64,000 nt of DNA from Sulfolobales archaeon HS-7 (GTDB lineage Archaea; Thermoproteota; Thermoprotei_A; Sulfolobales; Sulfolobaceae). The notes under the pieces are model-generated. The model worked only from the letters and a program-made list of their open reading frames with translations, did not search any database and was not told the origin of the DNA. This document shows positions 15,629 to 21,767 of this stretch, in pieces (within the stretch, counting starts at the first letter, position 1; every line of letters begins with the position of its first letter). The position numbers were made by a program, and so were the translations under genes. The stretch spans positions 384,001 through 448,000 of the forward strand of contig AP024596.1 of NCBI GenBank assembly GCA_019704295.1, in the 5' to 3' direction.

Positions 15629-16366
15629 TCATACCTCACCCCGACTTATCTCATCGGGATCGGGTTTCCTACTGATCAGCCTCCCCCCATCTATAATTAT
15701 CTCCGTTCCTGTGATGAAGGTATTCATGTCTGAGGAGAGAAATACAAGCAAATTCGCGACTTCCTCAGGTCTTCCCATTCTGCCTAAAAGGGTGGCGGAA
15801 CGCAGATCCAGGTTTTCAGGTACATCATCCCCTTTTGTGTATATAGGTCCAGGTAATACCGTAATGACCTGAATGCCGTATTGACCTAAGTCGACGGCCA
15901 TGCTTCTTGCCATTGAGATCAGTCCACCTTTCGTTACGGCGTAAGGAAGGGAACTCCTCAGAGGGGAAAAAGCCTGTATTGCTGATACGTTAATTATCTT
16001 TCCTCTGTTCCCATTCCTAATCATTGCCTCAGCTGCCGCTTTCGACAAAAACATAGGAGCCGTTAGATTTAACTCTATCATAGAGTTCCATTCCTCCTCA
16101 GAAACTTCCAATACTGAATACCTGGAGTTACGCGACGCGTTATTGATAAGGGCATCTATATTCATCTCCCTTAATTGTAAATACACTCTTCTGATTTCCT
16201 CCCTTTTAGACAAGTCTGCTACAATGTAGTCTACGCTTATCTGAGGTACGGAACGGCCTATAACTGTTACGTTAGCTCCCTCTTCTAGGGCTCTTTTAGC
16301 GAAAGCAAGACCTATTCCGTGAGTTCCGCCGGTTATTACAATATGCTTATTTCTCAGGAGGTTCAT
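15629..16366 (-). CDS. SDR family oxidoreductase
   Basis: [12 protein letters not shown], catalytic Ser and YAVTK (YxxxK), [13 protein letters not shown]. Confidence 0.93.
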
Positions 16367-17507
16367 CTTTGATATCCCCGAAGTACCTGTAATCCTTGCT
16401 GAAGTACTCCAGATGAAGCTTTCTATATGGATACTTATTTAGTGCGTCTTCATTAACGTCAAATCCGATACCCGGTTTCTTAGGTGGATATATGTAGCCG
16501 TTCCTCAGTTCAAAGTACTCCGTGAGCAGATCTTTTCTCACGCTGGGTGCATCTAACCAAAACTCCATTATTAACCCGTTAGGCATAGTAAGCATAGCAT
16601 TAAGCGTGTGAGCGGTAGCTATAGGACCGTTTGGATTATGTGGGGCAACAGATAGATATTTCGCAGAAGCCAGAGAAGCTATTTTGGAAAGAGTTCCCAA
16701 GCCTCCAACATGACAAACGTCAGGTTGAATTACATCTGCTGCTCCTGAGTTTATGAGTTCAACGAACCTATTTAACGTGACCAATCTCTCACCGGTAGCT
16801 ATAGTAATTATGGATTTTGACCTTACTACCTTCAACGAGTCTATGTCTTCCTCAGGTACAGGCTCCTCTAGCCAAAAAACGTTATATTTCCTCAACATTT
16901 CTGCAACTCGAATTGATGAAGCTATGTTAAATCTGCCATGAGCATCTACTAATATGTCGAAGTTGTCCCCTACCGCATCCCTAACTGCGGAGACCCTATC
17001 TTCAGCCCTTTTAAGTTCCTCGTCCGTAATCGTTGGCCCACTTCCTCCAAACGGATCGAATTTAGCGGCTTTAAATCCAAGTTCCTTAACTTTTTTAAAT
17101 GCCTTAACAAACTCGTCTACTTCCCTATCGCCTGATATGAAACCGTTAGCGTAGACCTTTATCCTATTACTGACCTCTCCACCTAGCATCTGGTATAAGG
17201 GGACTTGAAGTTCCTTAGCTTTTGCGTCCCATAGAGCCTGCTCCACTGCGCTTACGGCCGTCATAAGTATCGGTCCTCCTCTCCAGAAGAAGTTCTTCGT
17301 TAAGAAGTTATATGCCCAATTAGGGTTGACTTCTTTGCTGAGAAGGTGGGGCTTGAAGTCGAGAATGGCAGCCTCTACTGTGGATTCGAAATCACCCATA
17401 GTTCCCTCCCCGTACCCCTTAATACCGTTGTCCGTTGTGACTTCCACTACTACGAAGTTCCTCCAGACTGCATAGATCTTGTATACTTTTATGTCAGCGA
17501 TCTTCAT
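16347..17507 (-). CDS. mandelate racemase/enolase-superfamily sugar-acid dehydratase (DgoD/gluconate dehydratase-like)
   Basis: [37 protein letters not shown]; start moved to ATG 17507, preceded by GGTGAGG SD. Confidence 0.9.
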
Positions 17508-17511
17508 GTCC

Positions 17512-18591
17512 TCACCTTGACGTACTAAAAGATTCATAAATTGGTTGTAAAACTACGGGAGGCAATTCGTCCTTAATACGAAAAGTCCCCCCAGTTCTCT
17601 CTGCCAAATGCTCTAAAAGAAAACTATCCTCTTCTAGGATTTCCCCTATTACGTTGAACCTACCATCAGCATTTACGTCTTTCTTGAAAATCCAGACTTG
17701 AATGTAATGAGGATTGTCATTGACTACACATACCGAACCAGAATACCTTCTCACGACGTTTCTGGGAGTTATGTTGTTTTCCCCCGCTGTAGTTAATCCT
17801 ACGGAGTTTTCCTTTATTCTAACGTCCCGAAATTCCCTTCCGAAAACCTTCTTCTCTTCCTCTGTTACGTTTGGATACACCCTTACTCGTAATCTTGTAT
17901 ACATTAAAGATGACGATACGTCCTCTAGTTCTGTTTTTGTGGGTTCTGGTTCTCCTATCCAGATCCTGTCTATTACTTTGGTGTTAATTAGGACATTCGC
18001 CGATGTTCCTATATCTAGTTCCCTTAAAGTTTCAATAGTGCTCCTTGCTCCTCCTTTTCTAACTATAAAAGCTGCTACCGAGATTCCCCTGCTGTGAAAT
18101 TCCTTCGATTTAGCTACGGCGTCCTCAAGCGATAGCCCTGTTTCCATCCAAGGGTAAAAATCATGAGATGCCATGACCAGTTCTGGATCCCTTACCTTCC
18201 TAAGAAACTCGTCAATGTGATCTACGGGAAATACACTAGCATTAAGTTCCGTTTTCAGACCTAGTTCGTTATTAGCTATTTCTACCATCTCGTCTAGGGA
18301 GAAACCCCAGTCTAGCCTCAAACCTCCCACTCCTATATCCTTAAAGACCCTTAGATTTCTTGGAGACGCGCCTAGCTGGTTGAAAACGTCAGGGCTAACG
18401 TCTACAACGTAATAAAAGCCGAGGTTATTCAACAGTTCTGCGATCTCTTTTGCCTTACCAACAGTTTCCCTTGCTATCCCTGACCAAACCTCAGTGTACC
18501 CTAGTTCTCTTGCCAATGGTAGGAGTTCCTTTTGTTTTTTTAGATAGTCGTCATTCCATAGGGTTAGTAACATACCTAACTTTTTCGTCAT
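17512..18591 (-). CDS. DUF871/MupG-family (GH170-like) TIM-barrel glycoside hydrolase
   Basis: VDVSPDVF, GLRLDWGFS, ELNAS, HDFYPWMETGLS, TIETLR and C-terminal RRYSGSV..N..FNVIGEI match DUF871 motifs; alternative GTG start at 18612. Confidence 0.8.
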   Translation of the reverse strand: MTKKLGMLLTLWNDDYLKKQKELLPLARELGYTEVWSGIARETVGKAKEIAELLNNLGFYYVVDVSPDVFNQLGASPRNLRVFKDIGVGGLRLDWGFSLDEMVEIANNELGLKTELNASVFPVDHIDEFLRKVRDPELVMASHDFYPWMETGLSLEDAVAKSKEFHSRGISVAAFIVRKGGARSTIETLRELDIGTSANVLINTKVIDRIWIGEPEPTKTELEDVSSSLMYTRLRVRVYPNVTEEEKKVFGREFRDVRIKENSVGLTTAGENNITPRNVVRRYSGSVCVVNDNPHYIQVWIFKKDVNADGRFNVIGEILEEDSFLLEHLAERTGGTFRIKDELPPVVLQPIYESFSTSR

Positions 18592-18696
18592 TGAGATAAT
18601 AGTTAAGACCACGTTTAAAAGTGTAGTACGAATTCCAAAGGGAATACAATTGTGTATGCGTTAGATATTTAACTTTCATTTATAATATAATGCACT
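18592..18696. promoter_or_regulatory. compact divergent promoter region (DUF871 operon / suyAB)
   Basis: TTTTAAAC on minus strand (18613-18620) and TATTTAA/TTTATAA on plus strand about 20-30 nt upstream of the respective ATGs. Confidence 0.55.
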
Positions 18697-18987
18697 ATGG
18701 GAAAAGGTCTCATTCACTCTAAAGACGACGACGTCTGCGTTGTTGTTGCAGACGTAAAACAGGGGGAAGAGGTTGTATGTTCTTCTATAGAAGATCCGAG
18801 GTATACTGTGGTTATAAAGGCCATTAACGATATACCTCTTGGTCATAAAATAGCTCTAAGGAAAATCGGAGAGGGTAACGACGTTAAGAAATACGGAAGA
18901 AGTATAGGTGTAGCAACAAAGGAGATTTCATTAGGCGAACACGTGCATGTCCATAACATTAAGTCGAAGAGGTGGGGAAAACGATAG
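18697..18987 (+). CDS. suyA: SAF-domain small subunit of UxaA family; sulfolactate sulfo-lyase alpha-like
   Basis: HSKDDDVCVVV, DIPLGHKIAL, KYGRSIG, GEHVHVHNIKSKRW; stand-alone SAF subunit as in SuyA. Confidence 0.75.
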   Translation: MGKGLIHSKDDDVCVVVADVKQGEEVVCSSIEDPRYTVVIKAINDIPLGHKIALRKIGEGNDVKKYGRSIGVATKEISLGEHVHVHNIKSKRWGKR

Positions 18988-20141
18988 AAATAAAGGGTTA
19001 TGTAAGGGAAGACGGTTCCGTCGGAATAAGGAATCACGTTGCTATAATCCCGCTGGATGATCTTTCAAACACTGCCGTAATGGGAGTTGCTAAACTAGTA
19101 AGGGGCACCGTACCCCTTCCTCATCATTACGGCAGACTTCAATTCGGTAAAGACCTAGATCTAATGTTCCACATTCTCGGGGGCAGTGGTGCAAATGCCA
19201 ACGTAGCAGGAGCAATAGTTATAGGAATTGAGGAGAACTGGGCAAATAAGGTAGCGGACTTAATCGCGAAAACGGGTAAACCCGTTGAGGTCTATCCCAT
19301 TGAGGGGTACGGCGACTTAAGGACAATTGAGAGAGCGTCAAGAAAGGCTAAGGAAATGGTTCAGGAGGCATCAGAAAAACAACGTACTACTGTGGATCTC
19401 TCCTCAATTGTAATGAGCATAAAGTGCGGGGAGTCAGATACAACCTCGGGTTTAGCTTCAAATCCTGCCACCGGAATAGCCGTAGATAAAGTGATAGATA
19501 ACGGAGGGACAGTCATGTTTGGAGAAACGTCGGAATTAACTGGAGCGGAGGACATAGTTGCCGAGAAGATAAGGGATGAGGAGTTGAGGAAAAAATTCAT
19601 GAAAATATATGACGAATACATCACTGAGGTAGAAAGCAAGGGGGCAGACCTCCTGGGTTCGCAGCCTACGCAGGGCAACATCAAGGGAGGACTAAGCACT
19701 ATAGAGGAAAAAGCTCTAGGTAACATTCAGAAACTTGGTCGTCGAGAGGTTAATTGCGTTCTTGATTACCTTGACGAATTACCTAGTAATAGACACGGTA
19801 CACTATGCTTTGTTAATACGTCTTCTGCAGCCGCTGAGGCGGTAACTCTATTCGCATCCAAGGGATCTGTAATTCACTTATTTACAACAGGCCAAGGTAA
19901 CATAGTAGGCCATCCATTAATACCAGTTGTCAAAATAACGGCGAATCCAAAAACGGCAAAACTAATGTCGGAGCACATTGACGTTGATCTCTCTGAGCTA
20001 CTGGAGATGAGGATATCCCTGGAAGAAGCAGGGGAGAGAGTGTTCCAGTATTCTTTAAAAACAATCAACGGTAGACTAACCGCTTCTGAAGTATTACAGC
20101 ACGATGAGTTCGTTCCAATAAAACTATACATTAGTGCATGA
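18972..20141 (+). CDS. suyB: UxaA-family hydro-lyase large subunit; sulfolactate sulfo-lyase beta-like
   Basis: GIRNHVAIIPLDDLSN, PHHYGRLQFGKDL, KCGESDTTSG, QPTQGNIKGGLSTIEEKALG, TSSAAAE, TGQGN; the first two are SuyB-type signatures as I recall them. Confidence 0.78.
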   Translation: MGKTIEIKGYVREDGSVGIRNHVAIIPLDDLSNTAVMGVAKLVRGTVPLPHHYGRLQFGKDLDLMFHILGGSGANANVAGAIVIGIEENWANKVADLIAKTGKPVEVYPIEGYGDLRTIERASRKAKEMVQEASEKQRTTVDLSSIVMSIKCGESDTTSGLASNPATGIAVDKVIDNGGTVMFGETSELTGAEDIVAEKIRDEELRKKFMKIYDEYITEVESKGADLLGSQPTQGNIKGGLSTIEEKALGNIQKLGRREVNCVLDYLDELPSNRHGTLCFVNTSSAAAEAVTLFASKGSVIHLFTTGQGNIVGHPLIPVVKITANPKTAKLMSEHIDVDLSELLEMRISLEEAGERVFQYSLKTINGRLTASEVLQHDEFVPIKLYISA

Positions 20142-21491
20142 TCACTTTAACATTAGGTTCTCATACTGCTTTACGTATTGTAAGCTTCTTTTTACGTCTG
20201 CGAAGTATTTATACGCTTCCTGAACATCTGAGGCAGTTACTGTATCCCTTCCATTCCTTTCAGCTATTATGTTACTAGGTTCAAGTATCTCAACGCTATA
20301 TCTAAGACTTTCCTCTGTTCCCACTTTGGTTAGCTCAGCTACTGCATCATCCTGAAGCTTTATACCTAGTTCCGATGCCCTTATTTTCACTATTTCCCTT
20401 ATTTCATCAGCTGTGTAAGGCCGTGTAGGTATTATCAGCATTCGATCGAGGACGTCGAGAGGAATTCCATGTGGAGATTCAATATCCGTTCCCCTTATTT
20501 TTGCCATACCTCTATTTGTAGCTAATATAATTATAGGGGAGAGTTCGGCCTCTAAGGCCTTCGTTAAGAACGAAAAGGTCTCTATGTCAAGCATATGTGC
20601 GTCGTCTATGAAAAGTATTCCTGGTATCAATTCCCCGTTACCCTTATTTACCGCTTCCTTAACTAGTCTATCGACCTCTTTCCTAACATCTTGATTTATC
20701 TCTCTCTCGGTAAAAAGAGAGAATATTGAGGTAAAGGAGATACTCTGAGCGGCAACGTTAAGATCAAGGTCGTGCAATGTAAAGGTGTTAACGATCTCCT
20801 TTTCCTTCTTTACAGGTCCGACGGGCATTTCTACAACCCTAGGTCCTCCCACCTCATATTTGGACTCAGCACTCCTCCCTATTCTAAATACGTTTCCGGT
20901 GTCTGCATCTATCCATATAACGTCGCCCTTCCTTATCCCTAATCTGACTATCTGTTCTGCAACGCCCTCTCCAGCGGTTAATCGAGATTGATCATCCTTC
21001 GTTTTTAGCACTATTTCCGCCTCACGCGGCATTTGAGCATAGGGATTCATTCTACTTCTTGCCACCTTTACCTTAACTTCATCTACAACCCCTTCGTAAA
21101 CCATCCTCTTTTGCTTAAGCCTAACACCAATTGATTTTCTAATAGCCTGTGTTAATATCTCCGTCTTCTTAAGCTCCACAGAGTAGAGTTCGGTGGCATT
21201 TATCGTGTTGAATGGTGTGTCCTCTCCAAGTTCCTTGGCAATGGCTACGGCAATCGCTGTTTTACCTGTCCCAGGTGGACCAACAAACAGAACACCCTTG
21301 CCAGCCATTTTACCCTTTCGCACTAATTCAACTACAAGTCCAGCTGCTTCCCTTGCCTCCACCTGTCCTACAAGACCGTCTGCCTTGAACTCGGCCTTTC
21401 CATTTAGTTTTAAACCCAATCCCGTTATGTGACTGTGTATGCTTGCCTTTTCCACCTCGGATGGCCTTTTAACTTCCTTGATCTCGGCCAT
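20142..21491 (-). CDS. RuvB-like AAA+ ATPase TIP49/RUVBL
   Basis: [53 protein letters not shown]; start moved to MAEIKE. Confidence 0.95.
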
Positions 21492-21767
21492 CTTGGCTCC
21501 AATTAAATTTAATGACTGAGCTTTTGAGATTATCTTAACTTCAGCATTCCCTGAATCTCTTAACAAAGGAGTTTTTACCGAGACGTCTAAAGGCGAAACG
21601 TAGCAATGCTTTTTCAGGCTTAAGAGACTATGACGTTTCAAGGAACTATAAATTAATTTATATTATATTTAAAATATTAAAAAGAAAATTGTATATCTAG
21701 TAAATAATTACAGGAAAATCTGAAAGATTTTTTTAACAACGAGAGTTAACCTTACCTTAAAGATACT

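Follow-up and report, generated by a model that had tools for sequence, protein, structure and literature searches.

A candidate sulfosugar salvage and desulfonation locus in Sulfolobales archaeon HS-7

Can an archaeon break down a sulfosugar to pyruvate and sulfite? The question is raised by a five-gene locus at positions 15629-20141 of a 64,000-nt stretch (the window) of Sulfolobales archaeon HS-7 (AP024596.1 positions 384,001-448,000; G000:C1:384001-448000), whose genome is a single contig of 2.15 Mb. HS-7 is a thermoacidophile of the family Sulfolobaceae, to which the named relatives of its proteins (Acidianus, Metallosphaera, Stygiolobus and Saccharolobus) point. In this locus, genes for a GH170-like protein, an enolase-superfamily dehydratase and a short-chain dehydrogenase/reductase (SDR) diverge from a gene pair resembling the bacterial sulfolactate sulfo-lyase SuyAB. 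Few organosulfur compounds are as abundant as sulfoquinovose, and sulfosugars are present in archaeal glycans: the N-glycans of Sulfolobales contain sulfoquinovose and those of Thermoplasma sulfofucose. According to a January 2026 review, all known pathways of sulfoquinovose degradation are bacterial and none has been characterised in archaea (PMC12890257). Our literature search, which did not extend to subscription journals, found no report of archaeal SuyAB or sulfoquinovose catabolism; within that scope, a pathway from sulfosugar to pyruvate and sulfite has not yet been described in any archaeon.

We propose that the locus is an archaeal counterpart, in reduced form in HS-7, of the bacterial route that couples sulfosugar Entner-Doudoroff (ED) degradation to SuyAB, a reading that we hold to be moderately probable. 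The substrate would be a 6-sulfonated hexose, namely sulfoquinovose, its C4 epimer sulfofucose, or both. The first-pass annotation of this DNA had proposed sulfosugar salvage and desulfonation, and none of the computational findings that it had named beforehand as speaking against the proposal was made. The interpretation is supported because the large subunit groups with SuyB, the two arms of the locus are linked in other organisms, related archaea supply the steps that HS-7 lacks in its locus, and a bacterial pathway uses the same protein families. The features of the locus are as follows:

15629-16366, minus strand: SDR, candidate NAD(P)+-dependent sulfosugar 1-dehydrogenase (Pfam adh_short_C2, E 6e-42)
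16347-17537 (likely start 17507), minus strand: enolase-superfamily (DgoD-like) dehydratase, candidate 6-sulfo-aldonate dehydratase (MR_MLE_N and MR_MLE_C)
17512-18612 (likely start 18591), minus strand: DUF871/MupG-family (GH170) TIM-barrel protein, candidate 6-anionic (6-sulfo) beta-glycosidase (MupG_N and MupG_C)
18613-18696, between the two arms: divergent promoter region (read from the sequence)
18697-18987, plus strand: SuyA-type small subunit (Pfam SAF)
18972-20141, plus strand: SuyB-type (UxaA-type) large subunit, candidate (2R)-3-sulfolactate sulfo-lyase catalytic subunit (GD_AH_second and GD_AH_C)

None of the five reading frames is interrupted or shortened, and their positions and domains agree with the earlier description. 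The minus-strand genes are tightly packed, with an overlap of 20 nt between SDR and dehydratase genes; dehydratase and DUF871 genes overlap by 26 nt on the longest open reading frames (ORFs) and are separated by 4 nt if the dehydratase begins at a conserved Met at 17507. The genes suyA and suyB overlap by 16 nt. The DUF871 gene is the first of the three-gene operon, and its start at ATG 18591 is that of the database copy of the protein. With this start the divergent spacer measures 105 bp, close to the roughly 100 bp first reported, and on the longest ORFs it shortens to 84 bp (18613-18696).

Identity of the split SAF and UxaA-type pair

SuyAB has been described as a (2R)-3-sulfolactate sulfo-lyase in Paracoccus pantotrophus and Cupriavidus pinatubonensis JMP134 (Rein 2005, Mayer 2010, cited in PMC12890257). 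Its elimination of sulfite depends on Fe(II). The HS-7 pair resembles bacterial SuyAB in its division into a SAF protein and a large subunit, its clade, its identity (51-54%), its cysteine pattern and its SuyA C-terminal motif, and it differs from the Paracoccus enzyme in belonging to an archaeal thermoacidophile and in having no SuyZ or TauE exporter gene beside it. Searches with tblastn placed the large subunit at 51-58% identity to bacterial plasmid proteins (50.8% for Paracoccus versutus, 53.8% for C. pinatubonensis and 58% for Rhodococcus proteins in SuyB context), and GarD was matched at E 2e-30. The genes around these matches are diagnostic. The C. pinatubonensis match lies in the order LacI-hpsN-hpsO-MFS-dehydrogenase-small-large, with no exporter gene alongside; this hpsN/hpsO cluster is the dihydroxypropanesulfonate (DHPS) cluster in which SuyAB was identified (PMC12890257). 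In P. versutus an hpsN-like hisD and an SDR gene precede GntR-small-large-'putative sulfate exporter', and the Rhodococcus context reads GntR-small-large-Aldedh-MFS-dehydrogenases-Ldh_2. By contrast, L-fucose genes surround a pair on a Bacillus plasmid that is 41% identical, and this pair corresponds to the heteromeric kind of L-fuconate dehydratase that Watanabe et al. 2019 describe (PMC6336799). A profile-free search of 1.84 billion representatives returned a few full-length clusters at 52-59% identity and, separated from them by a gap, the remainder at 43% or below.

In a tree of 138 rows, the large subunit falls within a 24-row clade that also holds C. pinatubonensis and P. versutus SuyB, with a Shimodaira-Hasegawa-like approximate likelihood ratio test (SH-aLRT) support of 100. 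The archaeal rows, from Sulfolobaceae, Vulcanisaeta, Caldivirga, Thermoproteus, Marsarchaeota and Thermoplasmatota, form one clade adjoining the bacterial SuyB references, and UxaA, GarD, fucose-type, haloarchaeal, E. albertii and Variovorax sequences lie outside the SuyB clade. The protein thus stands apart from the altronate and galactarate dehydratases, a grouping with which would have spoken against the first reading of the locus. Watanabe et al. (PMC6336799) report four cysteines, put forward as ligands of iron in the dehydratases, that are conserved across the superfamily except in SuyAB. Three of the four columns are occupied by Cys in 72-76 of the 114 rows outside the SuyB clade and in 0 of the 24 rows within it; in HS-7 SuyB, the columns of GarD C144, C179 and C215 correspond to Leu31, Arg55 and a gap, and that of C288 is kept as Cys152. 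Some neighbouring split clades have also lost these cysteines, so that the loss is necessary and not sufficient for assignment to SuyB. The small subunit is 43% identical to SuyA of P. versutus and 39% to that of C. pinatubonensis, and its C-terminal tail, HVHNIKSKRW, carries the K-[ST]-x-R-W motif common to the reference SuyA proteins; other split forms have E..RGRGD.

Clade placement, cysteine pattern and C-terminal tail uphold the SuyA/SuyB-type motifs reported from the first inspection. On the strength of the tree placement, the 51-58% identity, the cysteine pattern and the SuyA C-terminal motif, we regard the split pair as a candidate sulfolactate sulfo-lyase with good confidence, and the locus would then correct a widespread annotation, the NCBI names of these proteins, 'UxaA family hydrolase' or 'D-galactarate dehydratase'.

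Linkage of the two arms and fuller clusters in related archaea

The SDR stays below the cut-offs of its nearest NCBIfam models, those of glucose, aldose and L-rhamnose 1-dehydrogenases. The dehydratase is best matched by archaeal gluconate/galactonate dehydratase (308 bits, cut-off 750) and galactonate dehydratase (280 bits, cut-off 311), and it retains the D-x-H of DgoD, the metal ligands and the His-Asp dyad. Orthologues of the SDR in other Sulfolobaceae are 59-66% identical; those within suyAB clusters reach 63-64% in Acidianus and 51% on a Thermoplasmatota contig. Dehydratase orthologues beside suyAB are 62% identical in A. brierleyi, 59% in A. manzaensis and 57% in Thermoplasmatota. Co-occurrence was surveyed in 300 genomes across the class, including 43 other Sulfolobaceae; since related genomes are not independent, only counts are given:

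suyB orthologue: 20/43 Sulfolobaceae
SDR orthologue: 16/43, of which 15 suyB-positive; at most 7 kb from suyB in 8
dehydratase orthologue: 4/43, of which 4 suyB-positive; within about 6 kb of suyB in 2
DUF871-family gene: 17/43, of which 14 suyB-positive; at most 15 kb from suyB in 8
enolase2 (a second enolase-superfamily gene): 20/43, of which 20 suyB-positive; always directly downstream of suyB

No orthologue of the SDR, the dehydratase or the DUF871 protein was found in the other 257 sampled genomes of the class. Linkage of SDR and suyB extends over seven genera, HS-7 included, and on the Thermoplasmatota contig SDR, dehydratase and suyB genes all lie within 5 kb. In A. manzaensis the SDR gene forms a pair with an SGL lactonase gene, and in A. 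brierleyi and genome G007 it has such a gene nearby. The two arms are therefore linked elsewhere, as the proposal of a single pathway had demanded, through the eight Sulfolobaceae with SDR near suyB, the dehydratase orthologues (4/4 in suyB-positive genomes) and the Thermoplasmatota contig.

Archaeal suyB neighbourhoods have a fixed core, suyA-suyB-enolase2(-GntR), with variable genes around it. That of A. manzaensis comprises ABC transporter, MDR dehydrogenase, MFS and DHDPS aldolase genes, the block suyA-suyB-enolase2-GntR, the pair SDR-SGL lactonase and the pair Aldedh-dehydratase; it is a complete set, with SDR, lactonase, dehydratase, KDG-type aldolase, aldehyde dehydrogenase, SuyAB, MFS and GntR. 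The A. brierleyi cluster holds SGL, UxuA-like, dehydratase, Aldedh, SDR, two MFS and suyAB genes, and the Thermoplasmatota contig DHDPS, lactonase, dehydratase, Aldedh, SDR and suyAB. Further variants are found in S. tengchongensis (a DUF871 paralogue, suyAB and an HpcH/HpaI aldolase), Vulcanisaeta (MFS-GntR-suyAB-enolase2) and Metallosphaera (Aldedh-MFS-suyAB-enolase2-GntR, with no SDR orthologue). The HS-7 locus has no aldolase, lactonase or aldehyde dehydrogenase gene, as the first-pass annotation correctly stated, and relatives encode these steps within their clusters as an SGL lactonase, a DHDPS- or HpcH-type aldolase and an Aldedh. For the last of them, the relatives have a dedicated Aldedh, as opposed to the Mo aldehyde oxidoreductases first suggested.

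Among the closest known systems is the tandem sulfofucolytic ED and SlcC/ComC-SuyAB pathway, reconstituted and contained in one organism, of Paracoccus wurundjeri strain Merri (Stewart et al. 2025, mBio, PMC12421959), which employs the SDR SfcH, the PF08450 (SGL) lactonase SfcD, the PF13378/PF02746 enolase-type sulfogalactonate dehydratase SfcF and an HpcH aldolase (PMC12421959). At the level of protein families, HS-7 has in common with Merri an SDR, an enolase-superfamily dehydratase of the same Pfam families as SfcF, and SuyAB, and archaeal relatives add the SGL lactonase, so that the archaeal clusters match Merri family for family except in the aldolase and the racemisation step. The aldolase of Merri is of the HpcH/HpaI type, whereas that of the archaeal clusters is mostly a KD(P)G-type DHDPS protein; Merri racemises sulfolactate with SlcC/ComC, whereas the archaeal clusters have no Ldh_2 gene and carry enolase2 after suyB instead, HS-7 being without enolase2. 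Merri is also bacterial, with an ABC importer and no GH170 gene. Front-end identity to homologues in Sinorhizobium mexicanum is only about 37%, the value obtained for the SDR against the SfcH-like protein.

Another variant context, uniting sulfur-ester and sulfonate chemistry, was seen on a hot-spring metagenome contig (L055:7611-13803). There suyA-suyB-enolase2 is preceded by a sulfatase-family gene of the same strand, about 600 bp away, and followed by a convergent Aldedh gene. A Thermoplasmatales-like Logan contig (L056:7282-9339) carries a GH31 gene, an FGGY kinase gene and an ABC transporter divergent from suyA-suyB-GntR-enolase2. Its GH31 protein provides no evidence for a sulfoquinovosidase, being 24% identical to E. 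coli YihQ and, in a pairwise alignment, not conserving the positions of Arg301, Trp304 and Tyr508, the sulfonate-binding triad of YihQ. In G126 (C1:2518068-2520405), suyB is in two pieces about 1.2 kb apart, probably by insertion, beside intact SDR and enolase2 genes, and G138, of the same genus, has kept the SDR gene and has no suyB; the suyAB cluster is being lost in this genus.

The GH170-like protein and the divergent promoter

The DUF871 protein matches PF19200 (MupG_N) at 160.8 bits and PF05913 (MupG_C) at 44 bits, and the structure PDB 1x7f at E 6e-27. Within GH170, MupG of S. aureus has been shown biochemically to be a 6-phospho-beta-hexosaminidase, and the role of ChbE of L. paracasei comes from genetics (PMC6262408, PMC12791066). 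The HS-7 protein resembles both in having the two Pfam domains, and their beta-glycosides bear an anionic group at C6 of the glycone, as sulfoquinovoside does. It differs from them in its low identity and in the absence of a phosphotransferase system (PTS), MurQ or peptidoglycan context: no PTS gene occurs in any cluster examined, and the HS-7 neighbours (dehydratase, SDR, suyAB) include neither PTS nor MurQ. Since both studied GH170 members are linked to 6-phosphate beta-glycosides and the clusters are without PTS, a 6-sulfo analogue is a rational substrate, and the protein may be a 6-sulfo-beta-glycosidase, by analogy with these enzymes. The basis for this role is operon position in HS-7 and the linkage of paralogues elsewhere; we know of no 6-sulfo-glycosidase activity in GH170.

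In S. tengchongensis (L040:643-9050) and in G018 (L035:7451-15375), both of genus g9, the DUF871 paralogue has MupG_N only and lies 1-8 kb from suyA. It belongs there to a conserved block with a 905-amino-acid SBP_bac_5 ABC binding protein, a GlmS-like GATase+SIS protein and three ORFs without Pfam matches, which may be an uptake and processing module for a glycan fragment containing amino sugars.

The promoter region between the two arms contains the following elements:

18616-18622: TATA-like TTTAAAA, for the minus-strand operon
18630-18647: imperfect palindrome
18653-18659: operator-like TGTATGC
18665-18672: TATA-like ATATTTAA, for suyA

Both TATA-like elements lie about 25-30 nt upstream of their respective start codons, a spacing that leaderless transcripts would fit. 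In 10 of 12 archaeal loci, HS-7 included, the suyA TATA box is directly preceded by the motif TGTAT[AG]C (background 0.18 per kb). A. manzaensis and A. brierleyi have the motif ahead of MFS, DHDPS, SGL/Aldedh and SDR genes as well. This pattern is consistent with a single regulon under the GntR/FCD regulator encoded in the clusters. In HS-7, the upstream regions of the genes for KD(P)G aldolase, Aldedh, MFS, GntR, agl3 and TauE did not contain the motif. An orphan GntR/FCD gene of HS-7 (G000:C1:1043317-1043952; L042:5300-5959), adjoining an RsmB-like methyltransferase gene, encodes a protein 51-54% identical to the regulator of the Acidianus suyAB cluster, and is likely to specify the trans-acting regulator of the divergent promoter.

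Proposed route, its gaps and the competing explanations

From family membership and gene context we infer the following substrates and steps. The GH170-like protein may release the sulfosugar from a beta-glycoside, and the SDR would oxidise it to the sulfo-aldonolactone, which would open spontaneously or through an unlinked lactonase. The DgoD-like enzyme would convert the sulfo-aldonate into a 2-keto-3-deoxy-6-sulfo-aldonate, from which the KD(P)G aldolase encoded elsewhere (C1:484025-484876) would form pyruvate and sulfolactaldehyde. An unlinked aldehyde dehydrogenase would oxidise the latter to sulfolactate, and the divergent SuyAB would yield sulfite and a second pyruvate, both arms probably being under one operator and the GntR/FCD regulator encoded elsewhere in HS-7.

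The oxidative front end proposed here resembles the sulfo-ED pathway of Pseudomonas putida SQ1, passing from sulfo-aldonolactone through sulfo-aldonate and a 2-keto-3-deoxy intermediate to pyruvate and sulfolactaldehyde. P. putida SQ1 excretes sulfolactate and uses a GH31 alpha-sulfoquinovosidase (Felux et al. 2015, cited in PMC6336799, PMC12421959). Its dehydratase is IlvD/Edd (PF00920), whereas the HS-7 locus has the enolase-superfamily type and no IlvD/Edd gene. Sulfolobales operate a promiscuous branched ED pathway with an enolase-type gluconate/galactonate dehydratase and a KD(P)G aldolase. The enzyme families and chemistry are the same, and the HS-7 KD(P)G aldolase could supply the missing cleavage. 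The dehydratase of the locus is nonetheless a paralogue distinct from that of the branched pathway, about 35% identical to the next-best enolase homologue of the genome, well below the NF040790 cut-off, and associated with suyAB, not with central sugar metabolism.

A supply of substrate from within the cell is plausible. A full-length SQD1/Agl3-type UDP-sulfoquinovose synthase is encoded about 104 kb downstream of suyB (G000:C1:507498-508661; L050:1495-2658; E 1.8e-97 to Arabidopsis SQD1, PDB 1qrr), so that HS-7 very likely makes sulfoquinovose itself. The back end of the pathway does not discriminate between substrates, because sulfoquinovose and sulfofucose both yield (S)-sulfolactaldehyde and sulfo-ED gives (S)-sulfolactate (PMC12421959). 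The genome also encodes a sulfite-oxidase-family protein, and two TauE-family exporter genes lie at C1:752845 and C1:960129, far from suyAB.

Several observations weigh against a working sulfosugar pathway in HS-7, whose copy of the cluster is trimmed relative to those of its relatives. The five-gene arrangement was found only in the HS-7 genome among those examined, and a look for sequencing runs, RNA included, that contain the locus returned none. No lactonase homologue was found in this genome; the nearest Aldedh, lactaldehyde-dehydrogenase-like and 45% identical, is unlinked and lies among beta-oxidation genes; the KD(P)G aldolase gene (371 bits to NF040954) is about 80 kb off; and the cluster regulator is likewise unlinked. 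The locus has no suyAB-adjacent sulfite or sulfate exporter of the SuyZ or TauE kind found in Paracoccus, a neighbour that is not universal, C. pinatubonensis having none either. The dehydratase shows no specific closeness to bacterial sulfogalactonate dehydratase homologues, with 37% identity to the SfcF-like protein of S. mexicanum and 36-38% to ordinary DgoD. For the DUF871 protein, the closest orthologues (46-54% identity) are mostly far from suyAB and only more distant paralogues are linked; orthologue synteny was rejected as support, as the neighbours of the Caldivirga maquilingensis copy and of a metagenome-contig copy are unrelated (FCSD-like oxidoreductase, OTCase). Finally, HS-7 is the only suyB-positive Sulfolobaceae genome sampled that is without enolase2. 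This absence matters because SuyAB is described as (R)-specific, the sulfo-ED product is (S)-sulfolactate, and no Ldh_2/ComC homologue was found in the HS-7 genome.

In the relatives, enolase2 (L041:11167-12294 in A. manzaensis, L020:11164-12285 in A. brierleyi, L021:11176-12318 in Vulcanisaeta) was seen in no suyB-negative Sulfolobaceae genome. Its metal ligands and His-Asp dyad are conserved. Where DgoD shows K-x-N and D-x-H, however, enolase2 reads K-x-H and D-x-N, so that the general-acid His of DgoD is missing; we speculate that it may be an (S)-sulfolactate racemase or a second sulfo-lyase. An enolase-family gene of HS-7 at C1:123403-124476 was rejected as the missing enolase2, with 35-44% identity and a location among GH36-like and GH116 genes, and an HpcH-like match at C1:1678524 was rejected as the pathway aldolase, being CitE-like.

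Three other explanations compete with this route. The locus might consist of two neighbouring but separate modules, with SuyAB acting on environmental C3 sulfonates (sulfolactate, or sulfolactate derived from sulfolactaldehyde or DHPS) and the DUF871-dehydratase-SDR operon acting on a non-sulfonated glycoside through a promiscuous non-phosphorylative ED pathway. The C3-type module does stand alone in several archaea (Vulcanisaeta, and Metallosphaera with its lack of an SDR orthologue), five genomes of genus g9 and one fragmented assembly have their SDR orthologue at a great distance from suyB or on a separate contig, and the nearest DUF871 orthologues are unlinked to suyAB. We consider this unlikely, given that SDR (15/16) and dehydratase (4/4) orthologues occur in suyB-positive genomes and are absent from the other 257 sampled, that the genes are physically linked in seven genera and again in another phylum, and that the same operator-like motif precedes both kinds of gene in A. 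manzaensis and A. brierleyi. It is less likely still that the SAF and UxaA-type pair is a heteromeric sugar-acid dehydratase in a locus that degrades a non-sulfonated 6-deoxyhexose, or a uronic or aldaric acid, via lactaldehyde. Split sugar-acid dehydratases do exist (PMC6336799), as the Bacillus pair (41%) in its L-fucose cluster illustrates; SDR, lactonase, enolase-type dehydratase, DHDPS aldolase and lactaldehyde-dehydrogenase-like Aldedh are parts of 6-deoxyhexose pathways too, and the NCBI names given above mention nothing else. Against this stand the placement of fucose-context, haloarchaeal, E. albertii, UxaA and GarD sequences outside the SuyB clade and the loss of three of the four proposed iron-ligand cysteines from HS-7 SuyB; moreover, the enolase-type enzyme would already be the 6-deoxyhexose dehydratase, leaving a second and a third dehydratase without a role.

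A decayed remnant of the relatives' fuller cluster, with a pathway that no longer works, would account for the trimming itself: enolase2 and GntR, which follow suyB in 20/20 other suyB-positive Sulfolobaceae, are missing and the suyB stop codon is directly met by a TIP49 gene, neither the lactonase nor the cluster Aldedh is present in this small genome, and loss does occur, in the form of the split suyB of G126 and the SDR without suyB in G138. We judge it very improbable nonetheless, with five intact, full-length frames and conserved catalytic motifs, with operon packing, promoter and operator-like elements preserved, and with an orthologous GntR gene (51-54% identity) retained elsewhere in the genome. 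The sulfosugar ED route ending in SuyAB is the reading that we retain.

If this route operates as proposed, it would close a sulfur loop in hot acid springs, from sulfite through UDP-sulfoquinovose and glycan back to sulfite. The locus hints at a thermostable form of SuyAB and brings forward candidates for new activities, namely a 6-sulfo-glycosidase and a sulfolactate racemase or lyase. The presence of fuller clusters in cultured, partly genetically tractable Sulfolobaceae makes archaeal sulfosugar breakdown directly testable; isolates that carry the cluster include A. manzaensis, A. brierleyi, Stygiolobus caldivivus and Saccharolobus caldissimus. A bolder form of the proposal, which we advance tentatively and regard as doubtful, combines a GH170-family beta-sulfoquinovosidase with the relatives' enolase2 handling (S)-sulfolactate, in an archaeal sulfo-ED pathway that completely mineralises the N-glycan sulfosugar of the cell itself and of its neighbours. 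Both activities would then be new anywhere, and the GH170 enzyme would be the first 6-sulfo-glycosidase of its family and the first beta-specific sulfoquinovosidase.

The gene that borders the locus, a TIP49/RuvB-like AAA+ gene on the minus strand (20142-21641), converges on the suyB stop codon without a spacer and is unrelated to the pathway. Its longest ORF, with a TTG start, encodes 499 amino acids, and because about 50 extra residues precede the TIP49 domain at the N terminus, the true start probably lies further downstream.

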